NCBI GenBank assembly: GCA_035939295.1
Contig: DASZGA010000005.1
Location: forward strand, 1,791 to 65,790
Length of the DNA stretch: 64,000 nucleotides
Origin: Candidatus Elarobacter sp.
GTDB lineage: Bacteria; Vulcanimicrobiota; Vulcanimicrobiia; Vulcanimicrobiales; Vulcanimicrobiaceae
Direction: 5' to 3'
The translations under genes and the position numbers were made by a program. The notes below the pieces were generated by a model that had not been told where the DNA came from, did no database searches, and saw nothing but the letters and a program-made list of their open reading frames with translations. How positions within the stretch are numbered: position 1 is the first letter of the stretch; every line of letters starts with the position of its first letter. Positions 694-16,063 of this stretch are shown here, piece by piece.

Positions 694-1746
694 ATGGTGC
701 AGAACAACGGCCGAGCGAGCGGCAGAGTGGTCGTTACCGGCGGCGCAGGGCTGATCGGCAGCGCGCTGATTTGGCAGCTGAACCGCGAGGGGGTCGACGA
801 CATCGTCGTCGTCGACATCCTCGGGACGAGCGAGAAGTGGCGGCATCTCGTTCCGCTGCGCTTCGCGGACTACTTCGACGCCGACGAGTTCTTCGATCGG
901 ATCGCGCGCGAGCCGGACGCGTTCGGCGAGATCGCGACGGTCTTCCACCTCGGCGCCTGCTCGTCGACGACCGAGCGCGACGCCTCGTACCTGGTCGCGA
1001 ACAACGTGCGCCGCTCGCAAGAGATCGCGCGCTGGGCGCTCGGGCGCGGCGCGCGCTTCGTCTACGCTTCGTCGGCGGCGACGTACGGCGCGCTCGAAGA
1101 CGGGATGCGCGAGGACCTCGACCCGCATTCGCTGCGCCCGCTCAACATGTACGGCTACTCGAAGCACTTGTTCGATCTGTGGATGCGCCGCGAAGGGCTG
1201 CTCGACCGCGCCGTCGCGATCAAGTACTTCAACGTCTACGGTCCGAACGAAGATCACAAGGGCGAGATGCGGAGCGTCGTCGCGAAGGCGTACGAGCAGA
1301 TCCGCGCGCGCGGAGCGATCGAGCTGTTCAAGAGCTATCGCGACGGAATCGCCGACGGCGAGCAGACGCGCGACTTCCTCTACGTGAAGGACGCCGCCGC
1401 GATCACCTCATTTCTTGCGCGCACCCCGAAAGCAGGCGGGATCTACAACGTCGGCTCCGGGCTCGACCGCACGTGGAACGATCTCGCCCACGCCGTCTTC
1501 GCGGCGCTCGAGCTTCCGGCGCGGATCGAGTACGTCGAGATGCCCGACGTGCTGCGCGGGAAGTACCAGTACCGCACCGTCGCCGACGTCGAAAAGCTGC
1601 GCGCGGCAGGCTGGGCGCGGCCGATGACCTCGCTCGAAGACGCGGTCGCCGACTACGTGCGGAACTATCTCGCGACGGGGACGGTGCTCGGCGCCGAATC
1701 GGCCGCGGTCTCGAGCCCCGTACCGACGTTCTCCGCGACCAGGTAG
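694..1746 (+). CDS. rfaD: ADP-L-glycero-D-manno-heptose 6-epimerase
   Basis: VVTGGAGLIGS Rossmann motif, FHLGACSSTTE, YASSAATYG, PLNMYGYSK, KYFNVYGPNEDHKGEMRSVV, RDFLYVKD, KYQYRT; all characteristic of HldD/RfaD. Confidence 0.92.
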   Translation: MVQNNGRASGRVVVTGGAGLIGSALIWQLNREGVDDIVVVDILGTSEKWRHLVPLRFADYFDADEFFDRIAREPDAFGEIATVFHLGACSSTTERDASYLVANNVRRSQEIARWALGRGARFVYASSAATYGALEDGMREDLDPHSLRPLNMYGYSKHLFDLWMRREGLLDRAVAIKYFNVYGPNEDHKGEMRSVVAKAYEQIRARGAIELFKSYRDGIADGEQTRDFLYVKDAAAITSFLARTPKAGGIYNVGSGLDRTWNDLAHAVFAALELPARIEYVEMPDVLRGKYQYRTVADVEKLRAAGWARPMTSLEDAVADYVRNYLATGTVLGAESAAVSSPVPTFSATR

Positions 1747-2693
1747 AGCGGACGCCCTTTGATCTCGTCGTAGATCCGGCCGATGTACTCGCCCAAGATT
1801 CCGATCGTGATGAGCTGCACGCCGCCGAGGAACAGGATCGCCACGATCGTCGAGGTGTAGCCGGGCAGGTTGTAGCCGGTGAAGATTCGCAGCGCGACCT
1901 CGTACACGCCGACGATGAAGGCGAAGACGCTGACGACGAACCCGAACCACGTCGCGATCCGCAGCGGGATCTCGCTGAACGCCGTGATCCCGTCGATCGC
2001 GAACTTGAACATCTTCGAGACGGGGTACTTCGACTCGCCGGAGTTGCGCTCGGCGCGGTCGTACTCGATCCCGGTCTGCTTGAACCCGACCCACGAGACG
2101 AGCCCGCGGATGAAGCGGTGGCGCTCGCGCGAGTCGCGCAGCGCGGCGACGACGCGCCGGCTCATCAGCCGGAAGTCGCCGGTGTCGACGGGGATCGAGA
2201 CGTTGGTGAGCCGGCGGATGATGCGGTAGAACATCGCCGCGGTGAACAGCTTGAAGCGCGACTCCCCGGCGCGCCGCCGCCGCGTCGCGTAGACGACGTC
2301 GTACCCCTCGCGAAACTTCGCCAGAAACCCGTCGATCAGCTCGGGCGGGTCTTGCAGGTCGCCGTCCATCAGCACGACCGCATCGCCGCGCGCGGCGTCG
2401 AGCCCGGCGGTCGCCGCGATCTGGTGGCCGAAGTTGCGCGAGAGCGAGATGACGCGCAGGTGCGGATCGCCGTGCGCAGCGTCGAGCAGCTTCTCTAGCG
2501 TGCTGTCGCGGGATCCGTCGTCGACCAGGATCACCTCGTAGTCCGCCGGCGGATCGCTCAGCCCGCGGACCACCCGGATGATCCGCCGCAACAGCTCGCC
2601 GACGTTGTCGGCCTCGTTGAAGAGGGGAACGACGATGCTGAGCGTCGCGTCGGCCCCCCGGCGAACGGCCGGCTCCTGCGGGATGAAGGTCAC
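1665..2693 (-). CDS. GT2 polyprenol-phosphate glycosyltransferase (GtrB/ArnC-like)
   Basis: SIVVPLFNE, VDDGSRD, SRNFGHQIAATAG, MDGDLQDPPELI, DTGDFRLMSRR, two C-terminal TM helices. Start moved to GTG at 2693 (VTFIPQE); the 39 upstream codons are not homologous. Confidence 0.9.
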   Translation of the reverse strand: MTFIPQEPAVRRGADATLSIVVPLFNEADNVGELLRRIIRVVRGLSDPPADYEVILVDDGSRDSTLEKLLDAAHGDPHLRVISLSRNFGHQIAATAGLDAARGDAVVLMDGDLQDPPELIDGFLAKFREGYDVVYATRRRRAGESRFKLFTAAMFYRIIRRLTNVSIPVDTGDFRLMSRRVVAALRDSRERHRFIRGLVSWVGFKQTGIEYDRAERNSGESKYPVSKMFKFAIDGITAFSEIPLRIATWFGFVVSVFAFIVGVYEVALRIFTGYNLPGYTSTIVAILFLGGVQLITIGILGEYIGRIYDEIKGRPLYLVAENVGTGLETAADSAPSTVPVAR

Positions 2694-2747
2694 CTGCGCT
2701 TGTTCTCGCCGCTCCAAGGCTCTCACTCTCTCGCTTCGGAGGCTCTC

Positions 2748-3290
2748 ATCCGCCGCACGCCGCTCGCCGCCGCACTCAGCACCGCGCTCAGCCTGACCGC
2801 GTGTGCGCACGGCGCGGACTCTTCAGGTACCGGCTCGCATCCCACCGGGGCGACCGCAACCACGGCGGTAACTCCGGCGACTCGAAGCCGGCCGCCGAAC
2901 GCGCAGCACGCGCACATCCGGACAACGGTGCCTCCGGAGACGCCGCGCAGCACGGCCCGGCCGTTCGTGAAGGCCGCGAAGCGAATCGCGGACGGCGCCG
3001 TGGCTGCGGCGATGCCGCAGATCCTCGCAGCGTCGGTTTCGCCCACCGTGGTCGGATCGGGGACCGTCGTGAGCGCCGTCGTGCACACGACGCCGGGCGT
3101 GGTGAGCGTCACGGCGTACGCCGGCGGGACCTCGCTGCCCGTGCCGCGCGTGGGCCCCGGGGTCTTCTCGGGGAGTACGACCCTCCCGCCGCTCCCGCCG
3201 TTCGCCCACGGTTCCTACTCCGTCACCTTCGTCGCCCGCGATGCCCGCGGGGCGAGCACGCAGAGCGCGGTGGGCGTTAGCGTCCGCTAG
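2748..3290 (+). CDS. Putative lipoprotein with Thr/Pro-rich linker and C-terminal Ig-like beta domain
   Basis: RRTPLAAALSTALSLTAC lipobox (L-T-A-C), low-complexity linker, beta-rich C-terminus. ORF-track start is TTG 2700; GGAGG at 2738-2742 precedes an in-frame ATC at 2748. Confidence 0.6.
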   Translation: MRRTPLAAALSTALSLTACAHGADSSGTGSHPTGATATTAVTPATRSRPPNAQHAHIRTTVPPETPRSTARPFVKAAKRIADGAVAAAMPQILAASVSPTVVGSGTVVSAVVHTTPGVVSVTAYAGGTSLPVPRVGPGVFSGSTTLPPLPPFAHGSYSVTFVARDARGASTQSAVGVSVR

Positions 3291-3308
3291 CGGGAAAGAC
3301 GGCCGGGT

Positions 3309-3692
3309 ATGCTGGCACCGCTCCTCGCCCTCGTCACGACCGTCGCGCTCGCCTCGCCCGAACCTGCCGATGCGTACGCGCACGTCGGGGCGACGCCCCC
3401 GCCGCACGGCTACCCGGCGATCCGCTCGTTCGCGATCTCGACGACCGTGATCCATCCCGGCCGCCCGGTCTCCGGCAGCGTCGAGACGTCCGACAACGTG
3501 CACTACGTCGAAGCGCGCGTCGAGTACCGCGCGCTCGCGATGCACGAGGACGGCCCGGGCCGGTTCTCGCTGACGTACACCGTCCCGTGGTGGCTCCCGC
3601 CGTGGGTGCGCCACGGCTACACGCTGCAGATCATCGCCCGCAGCGTGGACGGCGTCGAGACCTCGCGCGCGATCCCGATCGTCGTCAAGTAA
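3309..3692 (+). CDS. Exported hypothetical protein, paralog of the C-terminal domain of the upstream lipoprotein
   Basis: Hydrophobic signal peptide MLAPLLALVTTVALA; GPGRFSLTYTVPWWLPPWVRHGYTLQIIARSVDG aligns by eye to GPGVFSGSTTLPPLPPFAHGSYSVTFVARDARG. Confidence 0.7.
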   Translation: MLAPLLALVTTVALASPEPADAYAHVGATPPPHGYPAIRSFAISTTVIHPGRPVSGSVETSDNVHYVEARVEYRALAMHEDGPGRFSLTYTVPWWLPPWVRHGYTLQIIARSVDGVETSRAIPIVVK

Positions 3693-3697
3693 CGAGG

Positions 3698-6061
3698 TCA
3701 CCGCAAGGCGGCGTTGTCGTCGTTCGGCGGTGCGGCAAGCCGCCGCAGCGCTGCGACGGTTTCTTCGAGGAAGACGGCTTGATACGAAACGACGTCGGCG
3801 ACGCCGGGAAAGCGCGCGTCGCGGCGATTCGTGCCCAGCAGATAGCGTGCGCCGTCGCGCGCGAGGACGCCGCGCCGGACCGCGCCTTCGATCGCGTCGG
3901 CGACGCAGCGGTCGGGATCGTGCCGCAGCTCGGGATCGACGAACGCGCCGGGCGGGAGCGCGTCGCGCAGCCGCACGACGCCGTCGGTCGCTTCGTGCGC
4001 GTCGAACGGTAAGCCGACGGCGAGCAGCAACTGTGCGAACAGCGCGCTGGTCGTCACCGGCCTCGCGGCGGCGAGCGAGGTCGCGAGCTGCTGCGGATCG
4101 GCGGGCCGCACGATGCGGTACAGCATCGCGAGCCGTTTGCCGCGGAACGGGTCGAACGCGATCGCGGCGAACCACGGCGCCGCGACCACGAGCAGGTGAT
4201 CGACGATCCCTTTGAGCGGCCGCATCCGGCCGTCGGTGCTGTAGAACCCTTCGGGCGTGACGAAGAAGGTTGCGCCGCGCCGCACGACCTCGACGATCCG
4301 CGCGACGTCTTCGTCGACGCCCGCGCGCAGTGCCGTCAGCAGCTCGCCGCGGTACGGTTCGAGCACGTGCGAGAGCCGCATGCGCGCTTCGCCGGCTGCG
4401 AAGTTTTGCGGCAGGAGCAGGTCGCCGAGGGTGCGCGCGCCGGCGGGGATCTGCGCGCGCGCCGCATCGCGAAAGACGAGCTCGAGCGGAAGATCGCCGT
4501 AGCGCGCGCGCAGCTCGTGCGCGATGCTGCGCAGCGGGCGCGCGGAGAGCTCGTTCTCGAGCGGGAGCATCCCGAGCCCGAAGAACAGCGGCCCCGCGTT
4601 GACCTTGCGCATGAACCCGAGCCACGGCATCCGCGTCGCGAAGAACCCGGGCTCGTACATCCGGCGCGATGACGCGGTGAAGAGCGGCCGGAACAACGAC
4701 TGCACGAACGTCCGCTCGACGATGATCTCCGACTCGTCCTCGTGCTGATGGTTCGCGATCAGCACCGCCGGACCGCGGCGCACCGGGAGCTTGCCCCATT
4801 GCCGCACGCGGACGTGCAGCGCGATCAGCGGCTGCCGGATCGCGGTTGTCAGCGCGACCAGCAGCACCTGCCAGATCGAGATCGCGCCCTTGCGCCCGAC
4901 CCGCAGCACCGTCAGCGAACCGATCGCGAACGACGCGCCGGCCAGCGCGAAGAGCCAGCGGTATCCCTGCGCCGGCGTCGCGCCGTGCGCGATCACCCAC
5001 GCGCCGATCTTCGGCGCGAAGACGAGCGGCAAGCTTGAGAGCGTTCCCCACACGCCGAGATCGCGCGCGACGTCGCCGATCTCCGGGATCGTGTCGAGCG
5101 CGAGCGCCCAGCCGACCGAGAAGACGCCGCCGTAGCCCAACCCGAACAGCGCGGAGTAGACGAAGATCCAGCGCTCGTCGGGATGCAGCGCGAAGCCGAG
5201 CGCGGCCAGCGTCATCGGAACGCCGGAGAACATGACGATCAGCCGGCGGTCGATCTTGTCGGAGAGCGTCCCCGCCCAAATGCTCGAGACGATCGCGCCG
5301 AGCAGCGCCGCGCCGGCGACCATCCCGGTTCCGAGCGAAGCGTCCTTCACGCCGAGCACGTCGGAGAAGAAGTAGAGCACATACGTGTTGAGCAGCGTGA
5401 TTCCGAGCACGATCCACGCGCGCGCGACGAGCGTCACCGCGAGATCGTGGCGGTCGCGGACGACGGCGCGCGCGAGCGCCGGCGGCGACGGAGGCGTGTG
5501 CGGGATCGCGAACAGCGAGGTCGCAACCAGCGCGATGGCGATCGCGATCGCGAACAACGCCTGCTGCGGCGGAAGCAGCGCCGCGCACAGCAAGCCGAGG
5601 ACGGTGCCGATCAGCGTCATCGCGCCGCGCACGCCGGCCGCCGTTCCCCACACCGCGCGCGGCACGACTTCGGGGAGCAGCGCCTGATAGATCGTCTGCG
5701 CGGCCGCGAGCGCGATCGTTGCCGCGACCAGCGCGGCGCCGACGGCGCCGGCCGATGCGGCGAACGCCATCCCGGCCAGCGCGGCGACGTCGATCGCAAG
5801 CAACACGGCGGTCTCGCGCCGGCGGTCGCCGCCGCGACGGCGCGCACGGTCGGAAAGAATTCCCGCCAGCGGCGGCGTCAGCACGAACGCCGCGCCGACC
5901 AGCGTCGCAAGGTTCGCCAGCATCTCGGTGTGGTTGTTGGGCGAAAGCCGCAGCAGCAGCGCCGGGACGACGATCGCGAGCAGCGAGGCTTCTTGAAACA
6001 GAATCCCGATCCACAGCGCGTTCAGCGCGAGGTGATCGCGCAGGCGAAAGGTGCTGTTAAT
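3698..6061 (-). CDS. MFS transporter fused to a C-terminal PlsC-like (lysophospholipid/glycerol-phosphate) acyltransferase domain
   Basis: About 12 TM segments with MFS motifs (GILSDRARRRG, AGTLSDKIDRR), followed by LIANHQHEDE and FFVTPEGFYSTDGRMRPLKG acyltransferase blocks. The ORF track starts at ATG 5923, but the frame stays open to 6085 and encodes TM1 (LALNALWIGILFQ). Start placed tentatively at ATT 6061. Confidence 0.75.
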   Translation of the reverse strand: MNSTFRLRDHLALNALWIGILFQEASLLAIVVPALLLRLSPNNHTEMLANLATLVGAAFVLTPPLAGILSDRARRRGGDRRRETAVLLAIDVAALAGMAFAASAGAVGAALVAATIALAAAQTIYQALLPEVVPRAVWGTAAGVRGAMTLIGTVLGLLCAALLPPQQALFAIAIAIALVATSLFAIPHTPPSPPALARAVVRDRHDLAVTLVARAWIVLGITLLNTYVLYFFSDVLGVKDASLGTGMVAGAALLGAIVSSIWAGTLSDKIDRRLIVMFSGVPMTLAALGFALHPDERWIFVYSALFGLGYGGVFSVGWALALDTIPEIGDVARDLGVWGTLSSLPLVFAPKIGAWVIAHGATPAQGYRWLFALAGASFAIGSLTVLRVGRKGAISIWQVLLVALTTAIRQPLIALHVRVRQWGKLPVRRGPAVLIANHQHEDESEIIVERTFVQSLFRPLFTASSRRMYEPGFFATRMPWLGFMRKVNAGPLFFGLGMLPLENELSARPLRSIAHELRARYGDLPLELVFRDAARAQIPAGARTLGDLLLPQNFAAGEARMRLSHVLEPYRGELLTALRAGVDEDVARIVEVVRRGATFFVTPEGFYSTDGRMRPLKGIVDHLLVVAAPWFAAIAFDPFRGKRLAMLYRIVRPADPQQLATSLAAARPVTTSALFAQLLLAVGLPFDAHEATDGVVRLRDALPPGAFVDPELRHDPDRCVADAIEGAVRRGVLARDGARYLLGTNRRDARFPGVADVVSYQAVFLEETVAALRRLAAPPNDDNAALR

Positions 6062-6650
6062 CGATGTCGGCCCAGGCCGCGACGTTCACCGTCACGTGCG
6101 CGTCCGGCTCGCCGAGCGCGACGTGCGCCGGCGGGAGCGCGCGCGCGGCGTCGCGTTCGGTGTTCCCGAACGAGCCGCGCGTGACGCGGAACGCGACCCG
6201 CGCGCCGCGGTGCAGCTTCAGCGTCAGCCGGAAGTGGCGCGCGTCGACGCGGTCCATCCGCACCTCGCTCGGCGACCAGCCGCTGCGCTCGGTGCTGATG
6301 TAGACGTCGTCGCCGGGCGGCGTGCGCGGCGGGACGAACACGTCGATCGTCGAGGTGACGAGCTGCGACTCGTCCACGTTCTGCTCCGCCGCCGGCGCGA
6401 GGAGGAACGCGGTGCGCGGGATCTTCGCCGCGGGGAGCGCGTCCTGGGTGAGCTTCTGCGGCGTCGCGCGGCCGTCGGCGTCGAGCGCGATCGCGGTCGC
6501 GCGGCCGGGGACGAACGCGGCGCACGAGACGCCGTCGGCGAGCCGCAGCACGCCGGCACCGGCGACCGCGAGACGGTCGCCGGTGCACGCGAGCGGTACG
6601 ATGCGAAACGACGCCGCGGCGGCGAGCGCAAGCAACAGCGCGTACGTCAC
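6057..6650 (-). CDS. Exported protein with C-terminal CBM20/starch-binding-like domain (paralog Y)
   Basis: GTG at 6650 overlaps the upstream stop (GTGA); signal-like YALLLALAAAAS; domain VFVPPRTPPGDDVYISTERSGWSP..RMDRVDARHFRLTL..VAFRVTRGSF..VTVNVAAWAD resembles CBM20-like Ig folds. Confidence 0.65.
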   Translation of the reverse strand: MTYALLLALAAAASFRIVPLACTGDRLAVAGAGVLRLADGVSCAAFVPGRATAIALDADGRATPQKLTQDALPAAKIPRTAFLLAPAAEQNVDESQLVTSTIDVFVPPRTPPGDDVYISTERSGWSPSEVRMDRVDARHFRLTLKLHRGARVAFRVTRGSFGNTERDAARALPPAHVALGEPDAHVTVNVAAWADID

Positions 6651-8284
6651 GGCGTCACCGCGAAGCTCCAGCGCGGAACCCAGCGCGTTCCGCCCCACGC
6701 GAAGTCGTACGCGCGCCCGACGTCGAGCCCGATGTTCGGGAACGGCCGGAACCGCACGTCGCCGCGCACTTCCCATTGCGGGCGGCCGTAGCCGTTGAAC
6801 TGCGGGAAGTCGGCGGTGTGCACGACGGTGAGCCGGTACGAGGTGCTCGCGTCCGGCGTCACCTGCAGGTCGACGTTCTGGCTGCGGAACGTCCGCGCGC
6901 CGGTGAACGCGGCGTACCCGTAGTACGGCGTTCCGTCGGGCGTCAGCACCGGCGTCGACGGTGACGGATAGAACAGCGCCTGCGTGCCGGGGAATACGTC
7001 GGCGCTCCACGTCCCCTGATAGCCGGCGAAGAGCGTGACCTTGCGCGAGAACGGCTTGGTGAGAAACGCGGTTCCGCCGAAGGTGTCGAAGTGGTGCGGA
7101 AACGCGTACCACGTGCGCTGCGCGTCGAGCGTCGTCGAGAGCGTCGCGCCGAGCGGAACGTGCACGACCGGCGTCGCGACCGAGAAGTCGAGCCCGTGCC
7201 GCCACACCGTCGCGTAGCGGCGCCGGTCGGGGAGCTGGTTCAGCAAACCGCCGCGCAGCGAGTCGAAGCCGATGTCGCCTTTCAAACGCCACGTCGCGCC
7301 GCCGATCAGCGGCCGGTCCGGCGTGCGCAGCGCGGCGTCGAAGGTCGAGAGGCCGCCCGAGGTGCGCGTGTAGTCGACGCGCCCGCCGGCCGGTCCGAAC
7401 GCCGCGGTGAAACCGCCGTGCATCACCGTGCCGAAGATCGTTCCGGTCGCGTCGGCGATCGCGGTGTAGCGCGAGCCCAGCCGGCGGTAGCCGTTGAAGC
7501 CGCGGACCGTGTAGCCGTGCAGCGGCGCGTCGAACGACGCCGCGGCGAACGCGTCGTCGCCGGAGACGATCTGCTGCTGCAGTGCGAGCGCCGCGCCCGG
7601 TCCGTCTTCCCAGCGCGCGTGCAGCGCGGTCAGCGAATGCGGCGACCCCCACAGCCCGTACGGCTGGTCGAACGTCGCGCCGGAGAGCGACGAGGACGCG
7701 AACCCGGCGCCGGTCGAGAACGTATAGAGATACGAGGGCACCGGGAAGCCGCCGACTGAGGTCGGAAACGCCGCCGGCGTGAAGCGCACGTCGGCGTGCG
7801 GAACGATCACGGCATGCTTCGAGCGGATGAACGCACCGCGGTCTTCGACTTCGGGGAACGCGAAGCGCTGCGCGTCGAACGCCGCCGGCTGCGCCGCGCC
7901 GAGCGCGTGCGTCGTCTGGGTGACGGTCCCGTTCGCCGCGTCGAGCACGTCGACGCGGTTGGTGTCGATCTCTACCACGATCGCGTCGGCGGCGAGGTTC
8001 GCCGCGCCGTGCGCCGCGGTGGCGTGTCCCGCCAAGACCGCGCGATCGGTCTTGAGGTCGAGGTACGCGGCGTCCGCGTGCGCGCGCGTACCGTCGGCGA
8101 GCGCGAGCGTCGCACCGTCGCGCGCGAACAGCGCCAGCGTGTCGGCGAAGAAGACGACCGAGCCGCCGTCGAGCGTCGCCGACGCGCGCGCGCTCGCCGC
8201 GCACGGAAACGCAGCGGCGCAGACGGTCACGGCGATGGCCGCGACGAGGCGGCGCGACGGCGTTACGCCGAGCCGTACAGCCAT
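6647..8284 (-). CDS. Predicted outer-membrane beta-barrel with N-terminal LptA/OstA-like jellyroll (LptD-like, paralog B)
   Basis: ATG 8284 coupled to the upstream TGA (TGATG); signal peptide; N-terminal short beta repeats (ADAAYLDLKTDRAVLAGHA); alternating aromatic beta strands; C-terminal RWSFAVTP beta-signal-like end. Confidence 0.6.
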   Translation of the reverse strand: MAVRLGVTPSRRLVAAIAVTVCAAAFPCAASARASATLDGGSVVFFADTLALFARDGATLALADGTRAHADAAYLDLKTDRAVLAGHATAAHGAANLAADAIVVEIDTNRVDVLDAANGTVTQTTHALGAAQPAAFDAQRFAFPEVEDRGAFIRSKHAVIVPHADVRFTPAAFPTSVGGFPVPSYLYTFSTGAGFASSSLSGATFDQPYGLWGSPHSLTALHARWEDGPGAALALQQQIVSGDDAFAAASFDAPLHGYTVRGFNGYRRLGSRYTAIADATGTIFGTVMHGGFTAAFGPAGGRVDYTRTSGGLSTFDAALRTPDRPLIGGATWRLKGDIGFDSLRGGLLNQLPDRRRYATVWRHGLDFSVATPVVHVPLGATLSTTLDAQRTWYAFPHHFDTFGGTAFLTKPFSRKVTLFAGYQGTWSADVFPGTQALFYPSPSTPVLTPDGTPYYGYAAFTGARTFRSQNVDLQVTPDASTSYRLTVVHTADFPQFNGYGRPQWEVRGDVRFRPFPNIGLDVGRAYDFAWGGTRWVPRWSFAVTP

Positions 8285-9141
8285 CAGCGCGGCGGCTTGT
8301 TCGGAAGACCCGGGCGCTGCGTCGGGAAACCGCCCGGCGGCGTCGCGCGCGACGGCGGATACTGCCCGCCGGGGAACGGGTTCGGGTTGAACGGCGTCGG
8401 GATCGCACCCGGCGCGGCGGCGCGCGGCGCCGCGTTGCCGCGGTCGTCGGACCACGCGTACACGGTCACCGGTACCGACTGCGCGTCGACTTCCTTGGTG
8501 AAGTACTGCCGCGCCGGAACCTGCAGCCCGTCCTGTCCGAGCTCGACCGAGTTCCACGTGCCGCGGGTGATGCGAAACGCGAACTTCGTCCCCGACGCGA
8601 GCCGCCGCACCGCGCGATAGCGCTGGCCGTCGATGCGGTCCATCTTGATCGCCCGCGGGTCCCAGTTGCTGTAGTCGGTGCTGATGTAGACGTCGGCGGT
8701 CAGCGGCGTCGTCGGCGGAACGGTGACGACGAACTCGACAGCGACCTCGCGGCCGGTGATGTTCTGCCCGACGATCTCCGGCGCGCGCACCGTCGCCGTG
8801 CCGGTCGCGGCGTACTGCTGCACTTGCGCGTACGCGACGTCGGGCGGGAGCCGCCGCGTCGTGAGGTCGAGCTCGACGACCTGTTTCGTCGCCGGGTCGA
8901 GGACGGCGCGCGCGAAGATCTTCGCGCGCGGCTGCAGCGTCGTCGGTTTCCCGGTGTCGTAGTCGGCCAGCTTCGGCGCCGGCGCGAGCTTGAACGCGTC
9001 GCCGGTGGTGAAGTAGACGTAGCCGTTGCGCACGTCGAGCAGCTGTCCGGTGAAGCGCACGACGGTGCCTTGCGCGAACGACGGGAGCGCGAGCGCGGTC
9101 AGCACGGCGGCGGCAAGGGCGGTCGAAAGCAGGCGATACAT
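8284..9141 (-). CDS. Exported protein with CBM20/starch-binding-like domain and Pro-rich tail (paralog X)
   Basis: ATG 9141 coupled to the upstream TGA; signal peptide MYRLLSTALAAAVLTALALPSFAQ; VEFVVTVPPTTP..DVYISTDYSNWDP..KMDRIDG..KFAFRITRGTWNSVE..VTVYAWSD; PGAIPTPFNPNPFPGG tail. Confidence 0.7.
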   Translation of the reverse strand: MYRLLSTALAAAVLTALALPSFAQGTVVRFTGQLLDVRNGYVYFTTGDAFKLAPAPKLADYDTGKPTTLQPRAKIFARAVLDPATKQVVELDLTTRRLPPDVAYAQVQQYAATGTATVRAPEIVGQNITGREVAVEFVVTVPPTTPLTADVYISTDYSNWDPRAIKMDRIDGQRYRAVRRLASGTKFAFRITRGTWNSVELGQDGLQVPARQYFTKEVDAQSVPVTVYAWSDDRGNAAPRAAAPGAIPTPFNPNPFPGGQYPPSRATPPGGFPTQRPGLPNKPPR

Positions 9142-10898
9142 CACGGTGAGAACTGAATCCCGAGCTGCGGCGTCCACCGCTCGTTGGCAAAGTTGAAGTA
9201 GTACTGGCGGTTCACGTCGAGCAGCAGCTGCTTCGACAGCCGGAGCCGCAGATCACCCGTGAACTGCCACGGCGGCTGCCCGAAGATCCCGGGAACCGGC
9301 TGCGGAAAGTCGTTGAACTTGGCGAGGGTGAGGCTCAGCCCGAAGTATTGGGTCGGCGTGTAGACGACCGAGCCCGTCGTTCCGCGCGAGGTGGCGAAGC
9401 CGCGGAACGCGTTCTGCCCGGCGACGGTCCCGAACGGCGTCACGCAGAGGTCGCCGCCGCCGCAGGCGGGGTTTCCGGCCGGATAGGCGGCGAGCTGCTG
9501 CGCGCCCCAGTAGTCGGCGGTCGTGCGCGTCTCGTACGCCACGAACGCGTTGACGTGCTGGCGGTCGAAGACGCGCGCCAGCGAGAAGCGCCCGTCGGCG
9601 ACGTCGACTTGATGCGGGAGCGAGTACCACGTCCGCTGCTTGTCGAACGACGCGGTGATCGAGTAGCCGCTCTTCAAGCGAAGCGGCGATGTGTACAGGG
9701 TCGCGCCGGTGTAGTGATACCACAGGTCGCGCGGCCCCGGCTGCAAGTTCGGATACCCGCCTTCGCCGTACACGTCGTGCGCGGTGCCGATCCCGCTGCG
9801 CAGCCGGAACAGCAGCGGCGCGCGCTTGAAGACGCGGTTCTCGTAGCCGCTCCAGCTCAGCAGCGCGTTCGCCGGGTGCTCGCGCCAGCGCGGGTCGTAG
9901 TTCGCGGTAAAGAGCGCGTCGTTCGGCGGCGGTACGAACGCGAGCAGCTGCTGGAAGTAGTTGTCCTGCGTGTAGCTCAGCCCCGAGCGCCGCAAGCCGG
10001 CATTGAGCTGCACTTCGGTGAACGCCGCCGCGTTGATCGGGCGGTTGACGATCCCGGCCTGCCCGGCCGACTCTTGCAGGAACGCGCGCGCCTCGAGCTT
10101 CGGGGAGAACCGCTTGTAGCCGATGACGTTGTACTGGCGCTGCTCTTGCGTGAGCGGGTCGATCGAGGCGACGATCCAGTCGTTCGGCCACACGAAGTGC
10201 TGGTCGATCGCGAGATACGTTCCGTTGAACGCGTCGTTGCGCACGTGCAGCGCGGTCAGCGAATGCTCCGAGCCGTTGAACGGGAGCGCGACGTCGGCGC
10301 GCGCCCCGGCGAACCCGTTCTCGTAGAAGTGCGAGTTCGACGAGAAGGTGACGACGTAGCGCGGAAGCGGGACGTAGAGCCCGGCCGTGTAGACGCGCGG
10401 CTGGTCGAAGATGACGTTGGTGTGCGGCGCGATCCGCGCGGCGACGGCGTGGATGTACGGGCGCTCGCCGGTCAGGTCGGGGAAGTAGTAGGCGTCGCCC
10501 GGCTGCTCGCGGCCGGCGTGCTTGTCGCTCCAGTTCAGGCCGAAGTACGTCCAGCGCTCGGGCGACCCGGCGGCGGGGAGAAAGTACGAGCGGTCCAGGT
10601 CCGGGTAGCCGGCGAACGCCGCGCCGGTCTCGTGTACGCCGGTACCGTCGAGGTGCACGTCGCCCGCGACCAGGTAGCGGTTCAGCTTGAGGTCCATCGT
10701 GAAGGTCTGGCCGTGCAAGACCGTTCCGTCGGAGAGCCGGACCCGCACGTCGCCGTCGGCCGTGACGACGAAACGGTTGTAGAAGAACTCGACGCTCTTC
10801 GCGGAGACGTCGAGGCTGGTGGGCGGCGAGGCGACGGCGCGCGCCGTCGCGCTCGCGACGAGCATCGCCGCCAGCGCGATGAGGACCGGAAAGCGCAT
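9141..10898 (-). CDS. Predicted outer-membrane beta-barrel with N-terminal LptA/OstA-like jellyroll (LptD-like, paralog A)
   Basis: Signal peptide MRFPVLIALAAMLVASATARA; LDVSAKSVEFFYNRFVVTADGDVRV..MDLKLNRYLVAGDVHL jellyroll-like strands; aromatic-rich beta strands; ends PQLGIQFSP. Homologous by eye to 6647-8284 (NDFPQ..G.FGQPPWQFTGDLRLR vs ADFPQFNGYGRPQWEVRGDVRFR). Confidence 0.62.
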   Translation of the reverse strand: MRFPVLIALAAMLVASATARAVASPPTSLDVSAKSVEFFYNRFVVTADGDVRVRLSDGTVLHGQTFTMDLKLNRYLVAGDVHLDGTGVHETGAAFAGYPDLDRSYFLPAAGSPERWTYFGLNWSDKHAGREQPGDAYYFPDLTGERPYIHAVAARIAPHTNVIFDQPRVYTAGLYVPLPRYVVTFSSNSHFYENGFAGARADVALPFNGSEHSLTALHVRNDAFNGTYLAIDQHFVWPNDWIVASIDPLTQEQRQYNVIGYKRFSPKLEARAFLQESAGQAGIVNRPINAAAFTEVQLNAGLRRSGLSYTQDNYFQQLLAFVPPPNDALFTANYDPRWREHPANALLSWSGYENRVFKRAPLLFRLRSGIGTAHDVYGEGGYPNLQPGPRDLWYHYTGATLYTSPLRLKSGYSITASFDKQRTWYSLPHQVDVADGRFSLARVFDRQHVNAFVAYETRTTADYWGAQQLAAYPAGNPACGGGDLCVTPFGTVAGQNAFRGFATSRGTTGSVVYTPTQYFGLSLTLAKFNDFPQPVPGIFGQPPWQFTGDLRLRLSKQLLLDVNRQYYFNFANERWTPQLGIQFSP

Positions 10899-10966: not shown

Positions 10967-12097
10967 ATGCCGCGCATTCTTGCCTTTGTGATGGACTCCG
11001 CCGGCGTCGGCGCCCTCCCGGATGCAAACGTCTACCACGACTCGTCGAACGCGAACACGATCGGAAATGTCGCCGAGCGGCTAGGCGGGCTCCGGCTTCC
11101 GAACTTCGAGCGGCTCGGGCTCGGTCACATCACCGGCGTCCGCGGCGTTTCTGCTGCCGCCGCACCGCTCGCAGCGGTCGGTCGCCTTAGAGAACGCTCA
11201 AAAGGCAAGGACACCATCACCGGCCACTGGGAGATGGCCGGGGTGATCACCGAGGTCCCGTTCCCGACCTATCCGGACGGCTTTCCGCCCGAGGTGGTCG
11301 AGCGCTTCACCGCGATCGCCGGGAAGCCGCCGCTCGGGAACACGACCGCCTCCGGGACCGAGATCATCGCCGAGCTGGGCGAAGAGCACCAGCGCACCGG
11401 CCGGCCGATCCTCTACACCTCGGCCGACTCGGTCTTCCAGGTCGCGGCCCACGAGGAGACGGTCCCGCTGGCGACCTTGTACGACTGGTGCGAGCGGGCG
11501 CGCGCGATGCTCGTCCCGCCGCACGAGGTCAACCGGGTGATCGCCCGGCCCTTCGTTGGATCGCCCGGGAATTACAGCCGAACACCGAATCGTAGAGACT
11601 ACGCGATACCGCCGCCGCCCACGGTGCTCGACCGGCTGGAACGCTCGGGTGTACCCGTGCACGCAGTCGGGAAGATTTGTGACATCTACAGCGGTCACGG
11701 GATCGCGTCGTCCGTCCGCGTCGCCGACAACGGTGAGGCGGTCGACCGCGCACTCGAGCTCGCCGACGCAACGGATCACGGTCTGGTGTTCGTCAACCTG
11801 AACGACTTCGATACCAAGTACGGCCACCGGAGAGATGTGCGAGGCTATGGTGAGGCCCTCGCCCGGCTCGACGCGCGCCTTCCCGAGCTGTTTGCGCGGG
11901 TCCGCCCGGGCGACGCGCTGCTTTTCACGGCCGACCACGGCTGCGATCCGACCCAGCCGGGCACGGACCACACCCGCGAGTACGTCCCGTACCTGGAGTA
12001 CCGGACGGGCGCCGCCGGCAGCGAGCTGGGCGTGATCGAGGGGCTGGGCTACGTCGGCGAGCGGATCGAAGCGATCTTGGGCACGGCGCCGCGATGA
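10967..12097 (+). CDS. deoB: Phosphopentomutase
   Basis: VMDSAGVG, GKDTITGHWEMAG, YTSADSVFQVAAHE, RVIARPFVG, RRDY, FVNLNDFDTKYGHRRD, TADHGCDPT, TDHTREYVP. Confidence 0.95.
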   Translation: MPRILAFVMDSAGVGALPDANVYHDSSNANTIGNVAERLGGLRLPNFERLGLGHITGVRGVSAAAAPLAAVGRLRERSKGKDTITGHWEMAGVITEVPFPTYPDGFPPEVVERFTAIAGKPPLGNTTASGTEIIAELGEEHQRTGRPILYTSADSVFQVAAHEETVPLATLYDWCERARAMLVPPHEVNRVIARPFVGSPGNYSRTPNRRDYAIPPPPTVLDRLERSGVPVHAVGKICDIYSGHGIASSVRVADNGEAVDRALELADATDHGLVFVNLNDFDTKYGHRRDVRGYGEALARLDARLPELFARVRPGDALLFTADHGCDPTQPGTDHTREYVPYLEYRTGAAGSELGVIEGLGYVGERIEAILGTAPR

Positions 12098-12780
12098 GCG
12101 TCGTCGAGCTGCGCCCGGCCGCCGAGCTCCCGCACTTGCCGGTCGGGGTCCCGTTCCCGCCCGCGCCGCAGCGGCCGGGGTGGTACGCGCCGGCGAAGCG
12201 CGCGCTCGACGTCGTGCTCGCGCTCGGGATCCTGGTCGGCACCGCGCCGATCGTGCTGCTCGCCGCCGCCGGGGTCGTTGCCGTCAGCGGCGGGAACCCG
12301 TTCTACCGGCAGGACCGGATCGGGCTCGGCGGCCGCAGCTTCCGGATGCTCAAGCTGCGGACGATGGTCCGCGGCGCGCACGCGATGCTCCCCGAGCTCC
12401 GCCGCTTCAACGAAGCCGACGGCCCCGTGTTCAAAATGCGCGACGACCCGCGGCTGCACAAGCTGGGCGCGTTCCTGCGCCGCACCTCGATCGACGAGCT
12501 GCCCAACTTCGTCAACGTCTTGCTCGGCGAGATGTCGATCGTCGGGCCGCGCCCGCCGCTCCCCGAAGAGGTCGCGCACTACGACGGCTACGCGCTGCGG
12601 CGGCTGGTCGTGAAGCCCGGCGTCACCTGCCTGTGGCAGATCTCGGGCCGCTCGCACCTCTCGTTCGAAGAGTGGATGGCGCTCGACAACGCCTACATCG
12701 ACGCGTGGTCGCCGTGGTACGACCTCGCGATCGTCGCCAAGACGATCCCGGCCGTGCTGCGAGGGGTCGGGGCGCATTAA
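12094..12780 (+). CDS. Priming sugar transferase (polyprenyl-phosphate phosphoglycosyltransferase, WcaJ/EpsL C-terminal type)
   Basis: KRALDVV, F..LKLRTMV, DDPR, FLRRTSIDELPNFVNVLLGEMSIVGPRP, VKPGVTCLWQISGRS; ATGA-coupled to deoB. Confidence 0.92.
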   Translation: MSVVELRPAAELPHLPVGVPFPPAPQRPGWYAPAKRALDVVLALGILVGTAPIVLLAAAGVVAVSGGNPFYRQDRIGLGGRSFRMLKLRTMVRGAHAMLPELRRFNEADGPVFKMRDDPRLHKLGAFLRRTSIDELPNFVNVLLGEMSIVGPRPPLPEEVAHYDGYALRRLVVKPGVTCLWQISGRSHLSFEEWMALDNAYIDAWSPWYDLAIVAKTIPAVLRGVGAH

Positions 12781-12838
12781 CCGCCGGCTGACGGTCGTCG
12801 CCGAAGGCCGCACGCCGCGCCGCCTCGCGCGCTCGACG

Positions 12839-14365
12839 ATGCTGGTGATGGGCGCGACGCTCGCCTCGACGATCCTCGGCTTCGTCCGCGAGGTCGTCTA
12901 CGCGAAGTTCTACGGCACCTCGTGGGAGCTCGACGCGTTTCTTGCCGCCTCGATCGTCCCGGTGATCCTGTTCGGCGTCTTCAACGGCGCGCTCGTTAGC
13001 GCGCTCGTTCCGCTGTTCTCCGACTACCTGAACACCGACCGCGAAGAAGACGCGGCGCGGCTCGCCTCGTCGGTGATCGTCGCGCTGATCGTCGTCCTCG
13101 GGCTCGCCGCCGCGGTCGGCGCGTGGCTCGCGCCGTGGTACGTCCCGCGGATCGCGCGCTTCTCGCCGGCGCACGCGCACATGGCGGTGGTGATGACGCG
13201 CTGGCTGATGCCGACGATCGTCGCGACCAGTCTGGCCGGCGTGATCGGCGCGCTGCTGAACGCGTACCACCGCTTCGGCGCCGCGGCGCTGCAAGGGTTC
13301 GTCGCGAACCTGTGCATCATCGCCTTCGTGTGGTTCGCGCAGCCGCGCTACGGCGCGTACGCGCTCGTCTTCGGCGCGCTCGCCGGCGCGTTCGTCTCGC
13401 TGCTGGTGCTGATGCCGGCGTTCCTCTCGCTGCGCCGCTTCCGCTTCACGCTCGACCTCCGGCATCCCGGGATGGTGCGGTTGATGTACGTCCTGGGACC
13501 GATCGCGATCGGTTCGGCGGCCGGGCAGATCGCGCTGCTGTTCGACCGCGCCTTCGCCTCGGGGCTGAACGAAGGGACGATCGCCGCGATGAACTTCGCG
13601 GTCAAGGTCGTCGGGTTTCCGCAGCAGATCTTCGTCACCGCGATCGCGACCGTGATCTTCCCGCTCTTCGCCGGCCAGTTCGCGCAGAAGAACCGGGTCG
13701 CGATGCGGCGCAGCGTCGCGACGGGGTTGCAGATGGTCGTCTTCTTGACGCTGCCCTCGGCGTGGGGGCTGTGCATGCTCGCCGGTCCGATCGTGCAGAC
13801 GCTCTTCGAGCGCGGCGCGTTCACGCCGGAGGCGACCGTGCTGTGCGCGCAGCTGCTCCCGTTCGCGGCGGTCGGCTTGGTTGCGCTCGCGGCGAACGTC
13901 GTGCTGACGCGCTGCCTGTACGCCTGCGGCGTCGTGCGAATCGCGATCGCGATCTCGGTCGCGACGGTCGCCCTCAACGTCGCGCTCTCGCTGGCATGGC
14001 TGCCCTCGCTGGGTGCGCGCGGATTGCTGCTCGCGAACGCGGTCTCGCAGACGCTGCAGACGATCGCGTACGTCGTCGTCGCCTCGCGCGCGCTGGGCGG
14101 TTTTCACCTGCGCACGGTCGTCGTCTCGCTGCTGAAGGTCGGCGCGTGCTCGGCGGTGATGGCGTTTGCGCTCGCCGCCGTGCAGATCACGCGCACCCCG
14201 CCGGGACCGACGACGATCGCGCGCGTCGCGAACCTCGGGGAACATCTGCTGTTCGGCGCGTTCGTGTTCATCGCGCTCGCGCGCGTCGTCGACTCCGAAG
14301 AGCTGCACCTGGCGATCGACCTGCTCCTGCGCCGCCGCCCGCGCGACCTCGTCCCGCTGCCATGA
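12839..14365 (+). CDS. murJ: MurJ/MviN-family lipid-linked precursor flippase
   Basis: LGFVREVV, DAF.AA..VP.ILF..FNGAL, GQIALLFDRAFAS, TLFERGAFT; about 14 TM segments. The frame is open upstream to 12776, so the true start may be earlier. Confidence 0.85.
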   Translation: MLVMGATLASTILGFVREVVYAKFYGTSWELDAFLAASIVPVILFGVFNGALVSALVPLFSDYLNTDREEDAARLASSVIVALIVVLGLAAAVGAWLAPWYVPRIARFSPAHAHMAVVMTRWLMPTIVATSLAGVIGALLNAYHRFGAAALQGFVANLCIIAFVWFAQPRYGAYALVFGALAGAFVSLLVLMPAFLSLRRFRFTLDLRHPGMVRLMYVLGPIAIGSAAGQIALLFDRAFASGLNEGTIAAMNFAVKVVGFPQQIFVTAIATVIFPLFAGQFAQKNRVAMRRSVATGLQMVVFLTLPSAWGLCMLAGPIVQTLFERGAFTPEATVLCAQLLPFAAVGLVALAANVVLTRCLYACGVVRIAIAISVATVALNVALSLAWLPSLGARGLLLANAVSQTLQTIAYVVVASRALGGFHLRTVVVSLLKVGACSAVMAFALAAVQITRTPPGPTTIARVANLGEHLLFGAFVFIALARVVDSEELHLAIDLLLRRRPRDLVPLP

Positions 14366-14410
14366 CGGAGTCACGCTTCGCGTGATCCGGCGCTCCGGCT
14401 CCAGCACGAG

Positions 14411-16063
14411 ATGATCCATCTCGCGCTGAGCGCTGCCTCGGCGCTCGCGCCGCTCCTGTACGCCGCCGAGTTCGTCTTGCTGCTCGCGCCCGGGTACGCG
14501 CTCGCGCGCGCGCTGGTGCGCCGCTGGGAGCTCGATGCGGCGGCGACGCCGGTCCTCGCGTTCGCGTTCGCCGCGCTCGGCGGGTACGCCGCGTTCTGGT
14601 GCTACTTCGCGAGCCCGCTGCTCGGCCGCGCCGTCTCGGTCGCGTGGATGCTCTCCGCGTGCGCCGCCGCGGTGTGGATCGCGCGGCGACGTATCGCGCG
14701 CGACGAAGCCGTTCCGCTCGCGCTGACGTTTTTCGCCGGCCTGTTCTATCTTGCGGTGCTGTATCTGCCGGCGCCGGCGATCGGCGCCGAGCACCGGTTC
14801 TTCGTCGCGCGGCCGGACGACAACGTCCTCCCGCAGCTTTTCGCGGAGCGCTTGTACTGGGGCCAGGACGCGCACCGGCTCGGCGACTGGCTCACCAGCG
14901 ATCGGCCGCCGCTGCAAACCGGGATGCTGCTGCTGATCCGCCCGCTGTTCGCTCTCGCGCCGGCCCACCTCGAGCGCGCCTACGCGATCGCCGCGCTGGT
15001 CGTGCAGCTCGCGTGGATCCCGGCGACCTGGCTGCTCGTGCTGCGCGCCGGTCTTGCGCCGCGCGGGCGCGCGCTCGTCCTCGCGCTCGCGATCTTCTCG
15101 GGGTTCTGTCTCTACAACTCGGTGTACGCCTGGCCGAAGCTGCTCTCGGCCGGGTTTTGCATCGCCGCGCTGGTGTTCGCGCTGCCACGCTCGCGCGCGC
15201 AGCGCGATCCGAGCCTTGCGCTGGCGGGCGTCTGCGCGGCGCTCGCGATGCTCGCGCACGGCAGCGCCGCCTTCTTCCTGATTCCGGCGCTGGTGCTGCT
15301 GCTCGTGTTGCGGCGGCTTCCCGCCGGACGCGGTCTGCTTGCCGCGTTCGTCGCCGCCGTCGTGCTGCTCGCACCGTGGTCGGCGTATCAGCGCTACTAC
15401 GCTCCGCCCGGCGACCGGCTGCTGAAGATGCATCTGGCGGGAATTCCGAACGCCGATCCGCGCCCCGCCGCCGAAGCGATCGCCGACGCGTACGAGCGTA
15501 CGCCGCCCGCCGACATCGCGAGCTACAAGCTCGCCAACGTGCGAACGGCGCTCGGCGCCGCCGATCTGCTCGGTTCCGCCGTGATCTCCGAGCCGGCCGA
15601 CGCGCTCGACCGATGGCGGGTGCGCGAGCGCGAGCACGTCACGGCGGCGCTCGGCGCGGTGAATTTCGGCTGGCTCGCGCTGGGATGGTGGTGGCTGCGC
15701 CCCGCTCGCGACGCCGGCGCGCGCCGGCGCGTCACCGCACTTGCCGCAGTCGCCGCCGTCTCGCTCGCGTTCTGGTCGCTCGCGATGTGGGGTCCCGGCG
15801 GAACGGTCACCACGCACGGCGCGTACGCGACGCAGCTGCTCCTCTTCGTCGTGCTCGGCGCGGCGCTCGGCGAGCTGCGCGGCGCGTTGCAGATCGCCGT
15901 GCTCGCGCTCGCGCTTACCGATCTGGTCGTGACGTGGATCGTGGGATCGTTGCCGGACGCCTGGCGCGTCGCACCGTCGCTCGACCCGCTGATGGCGCTG
16001 CTCGCGCTCGCCGCCGCGGGAGCGCTCGGCGCGACGCTGGTCGAAAGGCCGTCCGCATCGTGA
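14411..16063 (+). CDS. Multi-TM membrane protein, probable GT-C-fold glycosyltransferase
   Basis: 12-13 TM helices; acidic loop RPDDNVLPQ followed by DRPPLQ; YAWPKLL and AMLAHGS motifs; sits in a glycan operon. Confidence 0.55.
   Translation: MIHLALSAASALAPLLYAAEFVLLLAPGYALARALVRRWELDAAATPVLAFAFAALGGYAAFWCYFASPLLGRAVSVAWMLSACAAAVWIARRRIARDEAVPLALTFFAGLFYLAVLYLPAPAIGAEHRFFVARPDDNVLPQLFAERLYWGQDAHRLGDWLTSDRPPLQTGMLLLIRPLFALAPAHLERAYAIAALVVQLAWIPATWLLVLRAGLAPRGRALVLALAIFSGFCLYNSVYAWPKLLSAGFCIAALVFALPRSRAQRDPSLALAGVCAALAMLAHGSAAFFLIPALVLLLVLRRLPAGRGLLAAFVAAVVLLAPWSAYQRYYAPPGDRLLKMHLAGIPNADPRPAAEAIADAYERTPPADIASYKLANVRTALGAADLLGSAVISEPADALDRWRVREREHVTAALGAVNFGWLALGWWWLRPARDAGARRRVTALAAVAAVSLAFWSLAMWGPGGTVTTHGAYATQLLLFVVLGAALGELRGALQIAVLALALTDLVVTWIVGSLPDAWRVAPSLDPLMALLALAAAGALGATLVERPSAS

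Follow-up and report, generated by a model that had tools for sequence, protein, structure and literature searches.

The locus described here raises the question of what two LptD-like outer-membrane barrels, each encoded together with a small secreted protein resembling a carbohydrate-binding module, do in a bacterium that has a genuine LptD elsewhere in its genome. The locus lies in a 64,000-nt stretch of DNA (the window), the source of all window proteins discussed below, from the ~70 % G+C genome of a Candidatus Elarobacter sp., a soil bacterium of the phylum Eremiobacterota. Lipopolysaccharide (LPS) reaches the outer leaflet through LptD-LptE, a drug target and, to our knowledge, the only gate for this step. 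Our proposal, held at about even odds (a probability of roughly 0.5), is that barrel and partner together form an LptDE-like second outer-membrane translocon for a lipid-anchored glycan, operating beside the genuine LPS translocon.

The array comprises five minus-strand genes. Gene A (9141-10898) encodes a secreted LptD-like outer-membrane protein of 585 amino acids, of the A-type subfamily, which is universal in the class, and is followed by X (8284-9141; 285 amino acids), encoding the secreted partner of A. Next come gene B (6647-8284; 545 amino acids), a secreted LptD-like paralog of A that represents the B-type subfamily, Y (6057-6650; 197 amino acids), encoding the secreted partner of B, and gene 5 (3698-6061; 787 amino acids), in which a major facilitator superfamily (MFS) transporter is fused to an orphan cytoplasmic domain. 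All four junctions overlap. TGATG at 9139-9143 combines the stop of A with the start of X, TGATG at 8282-8286 does the same for X and B, GTGA at 6647-6650 contains the stop of B and the GTG start of Y, and at 6057-6061 the TAA of Y overlaps the ATT start of gene 5 (6059-6061). The rare ATT is credible as a start since it is the only workable one, the first ATG (5923) costing the MFS half its first transmembrane helix (TM1), and since orthologues have GTG (loci L005 and L093) or CTG (L008) at exactly this codon. The order A-X-B-Y-MFS was found again in four other genomes (L005, L008, L009 and L093) and is therefore not a chance arrangement. The reading frames and the letters at the junctions thus confirm the five overlapping genes, their order and their coordinates as given in an earlier sequence-only reading of the window, and both homologies proposed there hold: A and B are paralogs with 27 % identity over their full length (E 1e-36), including the DFPQ..G.P.W...GD.R.R stretch, and X and Y are 39 % identical over ~109 residues (E 3e-20), with the VPP.TP..DVYIST..W.P..MDR.D motif.

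The sequence-only reading had also likened A and B to LptD, with a jellyroll followed by a barrel, and this description is supported. Following a signal peptide (signal peptides were called by eye, without a predictor), the product of gene A has its OstA/LptA-type jellyroll at roughly residues 28-185 (10344-10817), and residues ~200-585 (9144-10301) make up the predicted beta-barrel. The AlphaFold2 model of A, built from a 26-sequence alignment, is all-beta, with an N-terminal strand domain (strands within residues 29-107) and a large barrel. When this model was compared with the PDB using Foldseek, ranks 1-15 were all occupied by LptD (E 6e-12 to 9e-9), and ushers (1e-6) and TonB-dependent receptors followed five orders of magnitude behind. 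At the profile level, the 52-sequence profile of the A/B family (A6) was aligned by hhalign with the alignment of the genuine LptD family of the phylum (A5) at a probability of 85 % and E 6.2e-6, over 414 collinear columns that cover the jellyroll (A6 27-185 on A5 166-330) and most of the barrel, ending ~180 columns short of the LptD end. The same procedure with the BamA family gave E 0.3 for A6 and E 0.52 for LptD, so the LptD signal is not generic beta-barrel similarity. Searching the PDB with A6 returned only LptA sequences at E<=10 (best 0.013), and among the 52 A/B family members searched singly against Pfam the only recurring families were LptD_N (three members) and OstA_2 (one member); in B, residues 70-125 matched LptD_N just below its cut-off of 20.4 bits (16.9 bits, E 0.0077). 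For the jellyroll, the hhalign match is the one line above threshold, the LptA and LptD_N matches being sub-threshold when taken singly. With the narrow profile A1 the PDB search gave no relevant match, and A3, also narrow, aligned insignificantly by hhalign with A5 or with individual LptD sequences; the signal appeared only with the broader A6. A and B are accordingly deeply diverged LptD paralogs by homology and fold, with an N-terminal Lpt-type jellyroll and a predicted, somewhat smaller barrel.

The closest known system is LptD-LptE of E. coli, Shigella, Klebsiella and Neisseria (PDB 4q35, 5iv9, 7omm), in which, as predicted for A and B, an OstA/LptA-type jellyroll precedes a very large beta-barrel, a small partner is encoded or acts with the barrel, and the host is a diderm making lipid A. 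In comparison with LptD, A and B are ~200-300 residues shorter, have ~20-22 modelled strands, are without conserved cysteines and do not lie beside lptFG.

A search for a separate canonical lptD elsewhere in the genome, foreseen in the sequence-only reading, succeeded outside the window. The path to it started from a weak PF04453 match in another class, which led to a 727-aa protein encoded directly downstream of lptF/G; its counterpart in the present genome is an 858-aa protein (G000:C54:4653-7229, locus L017/L019), encoded directly downstream of lptF/G and near lnt. We consider this C54 gene the true lptD because its family is present in 115 of the 121 genomes of the phylum, matches the N. 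gonorrhoeae LptD structure (E 1.3e-9) and has three conserved Cys columns (A5). It is this protein, and neither A nor B, that neighbours lptF/G. With no match to PF04453, PF19838 or LptE, one of the two barrels had at first been considered as the sole LptD of the organism; this was consequently rejected, and A and B are extra copies. The genome further has two LptF/G genes, BamA and two small OstA-domain proteins (G000:C13:17300-18770), and the lipid A pathway is present.

The Pfam LptD, LptD_2 and LptE models found no match in this genome. For LptE (PF04390) this held at E<=0.1, in agreement with the earlier suggestion that other partners stand in place of LptE. PF04453 exceeded its cut-off in none of the 121 phylum genomes, LpxC being found in 120 of them, so that surveys of LptD based on PF04453/PF19838 would wrongly score this LPS-producing phylum as lacking LptD. 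Such a miss of a whole phylum's LptD matters for presence/absence surveys of outer-membrane evolution. A separate observation concerns the C54 locus itself: the plus strand (G000:C54 ~3700-4600) encodes, in the interval separating lnt from the true lptD and in convergent orientation to lptD, an N/T/S-rich lipoprotein with the lipobox LSGC. It has no similarity to X or Y and is a candidate LptE/LptM-like accessory.

The A/B family is small: a search of 1.8 billion proteins yielded 288 representatives at E<=1e-3, and among the 150 of these representatives that were listed there were only close family members and no bridge to other protein families. Within the phylum it is confined to the class of the window, where it was found in 51 of 52 genomes, including the window's own: 43/44 in the window's own family (f1), 1/1 in family f2 and 6/6 in family f3. 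Only one of the 69 genomes in the rest of the phylum gave a match, which was weak and N-terminal. In the maximum-likelihood tree of the barrels, one copy from every genome, the A of the window included, falls in the A-type clade (support 99/99). Several of the family's genera contribute second copies to the B-type clade (92/93), beside which the second copy of f2 attaches at an unresolved fork, and a third clade (100/100) is made up of partner-less barrels of f3. The latter (L088, L090 and L092, in genomes G041, G071 and G103) have no detectable X/Y-type partner nearby, and their genomes also have a normal A-X pair. They are the exception to an otherwise strict rule: in 13/13 loci across the class, down to ~30 % barrel identity, the partner gene lies directly after the barrel gene in the same order. 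Among the members of the barrel family, P0377 (856 aa) is peculiar in that its A-like jellyroll and barrel are preceded by an N-terminal stretch of ~270 residues made up of pentapeptide repeats (Pfam E 2e-34).

Most genomes of the class carry only A-X. The second copies with a Y-type partner (in the window's genus, G045, G055 and L010) are placed in or beside the B clade, and since this clade holds second copies from other genera the duplication must be old and B must have been lost in many genera. B-Y is thus an old, patchy duplication, and the barrel tree, from which this is read, suggests that the module was duplicated as a unit. It had been supposed earlier that A and B might form a heteromeric barrel; this is unlikely because A occurs without B in most genera. 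The supposition that all five genes are conserved together could be kept only for the genus-level group, the unit conserved across the class being the coupled pair of barrel and partner.

These data bear on the possibility that A and B are redundant or condition-specific translocons for the same LPS that is served by the C54 LptD. Both are homologous to LptD, and as the genome has one set of Lpt bridge components, these would have to be shared. Set against this is the extreme divergence of A and B from LptD, undetectable by BLAST, together with a different partner, the missing conserved cysteines and the shorter barrel; moreover, they have been kept for the whole history of the class beside a conserved true LptD. 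Divergence and long retention taken together therefore argue for a distinct job, and we regard redundancy as unlikely.

The partners provide the second part of the argument. X and Y have in common a C-terminal domain of ~105 residues, Y being 39 % identical to X residues 127-233, and no other X/Y paralogs were found in the genome. X consists of an N-terminal beta domain (residues 28-94, 8860-9060) with the strongly conserved motif GQLLDxxxG[YF]VFFTTGD[AG]FR, a predicted CBM20-like beta-sandwich (residues 130-232, 8446-8754) and a Pro-rich tail (residues 233-285, 8287-8445), which is modelled as disordered and contains the invariant PTPFNPNPF(P). This core is conserved across genera of the family, and the tail is missing from Y-type and f3 X-type partners; it might engage the barrel or peptidoglycan. 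In Y the signal peptide is short and ends in a conserved ..VPLAC.., the N-terminal domain is degenerate and the Pro-rich tail is missing; the CBM20-like domain (about residues 95-197, 6060-6368) is assigned by homology to X (alignment A7).

The AlphaFold2 model of X has a predicted local distance difference test score (pLDDT) of 72 overall and of 84-92 in the domains. In the Foldseek search its top matches were the D+E domains of CGTase, glucoamylase, STBD1 and the CBM20 of beta-amylase (E 1e-5 to 1e-3), and the best 49 matches were all CBM20-bearing enzymes or isolated CBM20s, the latter with template-modelling (TM) scores of 0.54-0.67. The CBM20-like character ascribed to X and Y earlier is therefore upheld at the level of the predicted fold. 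Among known proteins, CBM20 (CGTase domain E, the glucoamylase starch-binding domain, STBD1 and beta-amylase) and the Bacteroides surface glycan binders SusE/SusF are likewise beta-sandwiches of ~100 residues, and their pattern V.V.V....VY..GD/TD..GW.P..A..M is echoed in X and Y, in which the aromatic residues Y152, W160 and W230 are invariant or nearly so. X and Y differ from them in having no significant sequence membership and no attached glycoside hydrolase, and in being coupled to an Lpt-family barrel instead of a SusC-type TonB-dependent transporter. In comparison with LptE, they are soluble-type secreted proteins with a CBM20-like sandwich (and, in X, the Pro-rich tail) and not a lipoprotein fold.

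According to the proposed mechanism, an amphipathic lipid bearing a glycan would pass from a periplasmic Lpt-type bridge to the jellyroll of A (or B) and be inserted by the barrel in the outer leaflet, while X or Y would stand in for LptE, as a lumenal plug or in handling the glycan, the role that LptE has for LPS. The cargo could be an LPS glycoform that the ligase-like enzyme encoded nearby would cap, or a non-LPS glycolipid, of which there are abundant ones. The acylated glucan suggested in the sequence-only reading is a conjecture. We infer from the gene pairing and the folds that A-X and B-Y are physical complexes, that the direction is export and that the cargo is of this nature. In the cultured relative Vulcanimicrobium alpinum the outer membrane is covered with LPS, and 3-OH fatty acids and four unidentified glycolipids occur (PMC9758169). 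Ancient diderms do not generally have LptE-type lipoproteins, and other cargo has been proposed for Lpt systems (PMC11784454). There is also precedent for LptD homologues with non-LPS cargo, namely Borrelia burgdorferi BB0838 (bioRxiv 10.1101/2022.12.21.521298) and the surface sorting of lipoproteins by LptDE (PMC12065857). In Borrelia, as proposed, an LptD-family barrel handles non-LPS cargo, as A and B may do; there, however, it is the sole LptD homologue of an organism without LPS, whereas A and B accompany the true LptD of an LPS producer and have a dedicated glycan-binding-like partner each.

The genes around the array fit an envelope-glycan theme. Divergent from the operon and outside it, a block on the plus strand encodes a phosphopentomutase (10967-12097), a polyprenyl-phosphate sugar-phosphate transferase (12094-12780), MurJ (12839-14365), the only copy in the genome, and a 935-aa Wzy_C / O-antigen-ligase-like protein (14599-17406), assigned with Pfam/NCBIfam. 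Homologues of this block (10967-17406) flank A-X in 10-13 of 14 loci across the class, and the 935-aa Wzy_C gene keeps its synteny with A-X class-wide. It is one of four Wzy_C genes in the genome, another of which (G000:C334:22290-22691) lies by the lpxC-lptF/G cluster on C334. On the other side of the array, an ArnC/PgfS-like polyprenyl-phosphate glycosyltransferase (1665-2810, minus strand; NCBIfam PgfS 1e-89, ArnC 3e-60) and an open reading frame at 3309-3692 (plus strand) are syntenic in 9-11 of 14 loci (1665-3692), lying directly after X where B-Y-MFS is absent. A GtrA-like flippase was considered for the 3309-3692 frame and rejected, since its translation is a small secreted protein.

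Several observations weigh against the proposed glycan translocon. The model of A is of modest quality (pLDDT 66, predicted TM score 0.59), its TM scores to LptD are just 0.26-0.34, and it shows ~20-22 strands where LptD has 26. The curated LptD models PF04453 and PF19838 do not match A or B, a test that is weak here since the true LptD of the phylum is also missed. In no column of profile A6 does Cys reach 50 % of the rows, and it is missing altogether from most mature sequences. X, with a signal peptide and no lipobox, is not a lipoprotein, and it shows no LptE likeness. The CBM20 signal exists at the fold level only, sequence matches being sub-threshold: profile A7 against the PDB gave SusF at E 0.13 and a dextran-binding SGBP at E 0.84, and Pfam CBM_20 (PF00686) was sub-threshold in 3 of 23 X/Y family members (best E 0.023), which leaves the family outside CBM_20 by sequence. 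Dedicated inner-membrane or periplasmic Lpt-like components were not found near A and B, the genome having the ordinary complement only. Finally, the neighbouring MurJ is the housekeeping copy, so part of the A-X synteny may be a conserved core-genome arrangement.

A bolder version of the glycan translocon is offered tentatively, well short of even odds. It would be a second, LptE-independent gate throughout the class Eremiobacteria (Vulcanimicrobiia), composed of an ancient LptD paralog and a CBM20-like plug or assistant, exporting either a non-LPS glycolipid (e.g. the unidentified glycolipids that dominate the polar lipids of V. alpinum) or ligase-capped LPS, with A-, B- and partner-less S-type gates served by one Lpt bridge. 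A real translocon of this kind would mean that the Lpt architecture has given rise to gates specialized by cargo, whose partners are not LptE. The results point to an LptD-family gate with a new partner and to a so far undescribed route for placing a lipid-anchored glycan. LptE-less diderm Terrabacteria and the transport of non-LPS glycolipids are both open questions (PMC11784454), on which the A/B family offers a handle, and the presence of the family in the cultured V. alpinum (WPS_29550/29580 region) makes the module experimentally testable.

The lipid-anchored cargo might alternatively be protein, A-X and B-Y being flippases for surface lipoproteins or lipidated proteins and the CBM-like partner a chaperone or the surface-exposed cargo itself. 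LptD homologues have been implicated in lipoprotein surface export (bioRxiv 10.1101/2022.12.21.521298; PMC12065857; PMC11784454), Lnt is encoded beside the true lptD of this genome, and a conserved Cys follows the signal peptide of Y. However, X is without a lipobox and the ..VPLAC.. of Y is non-canonical as one, the partners resemble carbohydrate-binding modules, and the conserved neighbours are genes of glycan assembly and not Lol or lipoprotein genes. We therefore judge a lipoprotein flippase to be quite improbable and retain the lipid-anchored glycan as the preferred cargo of the second translocon.

The contribution of gene 5 must be judged from its distribution. The fusion adjoins the barrels only in the window's genus (Vulcanimicrobium-like) and in near relatives (L005, L008 and L009). 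In G036, G097 and G045 the MFS fusion lies 0.9-1.6 Mb from the barrels, and of the 44 family genomes searched, 11, nearly all of them with A, gave no match to its C-terminal domain. This makes the five-gene operon lineage-specific, and the fusion is not an obligatory part. An inner-membrane fusion protein had been counted as part of the machine, a view that does not survive the finding that most class genomes have A-X only, with the fusion homologue megabases away or not found. The MFS fusion is better described as a lineage-specific add-on, at most an accessory that supplies or recycles a lipid.

The same distribution speaks against an inward system, in which an outer-membrane uptake channel and a glucan-binding capture protein, Sus- or maltoporin-like, would feed the MFS transporter; import had been named as the alternative in the sequence-only reading. 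The CBM20-like fold of X, the weak SusF and SGBP matches to starch and dextran binders and the weak sugar-porter/GPH similarity of the MFS half would suit such a system, but a lipid-carrying Lpt-type jellyroll has no role in the import of soluble sugar, most genera have the MFS gene away from A-X, and glycoside hydrolases were not found in the conserved neighbourhood; uptake is thus a poor candidate. Equally doubtful is a superficial likeness to LptD, with A and B as lineage-specific structural or porin-type outer-membrane proteins and X and Y as unrelated periplasmic Ig-like proteins sharing the operon, since the modest model confidence and low TM scores, the missing curated family match of A and B and the sub-threshold CBM matches of X are opposed by four independent lines to Lpt proteins with a negative BamA control and by the strict class-wide adjacency and overlapping codons of barrel and partner, which argue for a functional pair.

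Gene 5 itself divides into an MFS half (residues 1 to ~395, 4877-6061; MFS_1 E 2e-22), with weak LplT/Aas-type and sugar-porter/GPH similarity (NCBIfam PRK08633 E 0.005), and the orphan cytoplasmic domain (residues 396-787, 3701-4876), which carries acyltransferase-like motifs. The ~390 residues of the latter gave no Pfam, NCBIfam or PDB match, by sequence or by profile. Two blocks recall PlsC. In the invariant ANHQHxxE (4733-4753), H438 and E443 are present in 102/102 homologues and form HX4E where PlsC has HX4D, and FxxPEGxYSxDGR (4226-4267), of the PlsC motif III type, is conserved across the 102 homologues. When the domain family was aligned by hhalign with 20 PlsC sequences only the motif III block was aligned (E 0.004, probability 8 %), and a six-frame search of the genome with PF01553 at E<=1 left gene 5 untouched. 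The label of a PlsC-type acyltransferase, given earlier, consequently goes too far, with two motifs to its credit and one of them altered; judged from these motifs, acyltransferase activity of the domain is plausible but unproven. LplT-Aas offers a parallel, in that an MFS lysophospholipid flippase is there fused to or paired with an acyltransferase/acyl-ACP synthetase and gene 5 has acyltransferase-like blocks. Gene 5 differs in its HX4E, in ~95 extra residues between motifs I and III, in being negative for PF01553, in the absence of an acyl-ACP synthetase part and in belonging to a family confined to one class.

The family of the C-terminal domain was found in 40 of the 52 class genomes, with one weak match elsewhere. 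The domain sometimes occurs as a stand-alone protein of 420-450 aa and is once fused to HpnK. In this last protein, P0344 of Candidatus Velthaea sp., the domain lacks the MFS half and is joined to a YdjC/HpnK-like deacetylase annotated as hopanoid-associated, which hints at a tie to hopanoid or glycolipid head-group chemistry, or else reflects a gene-call fusion.

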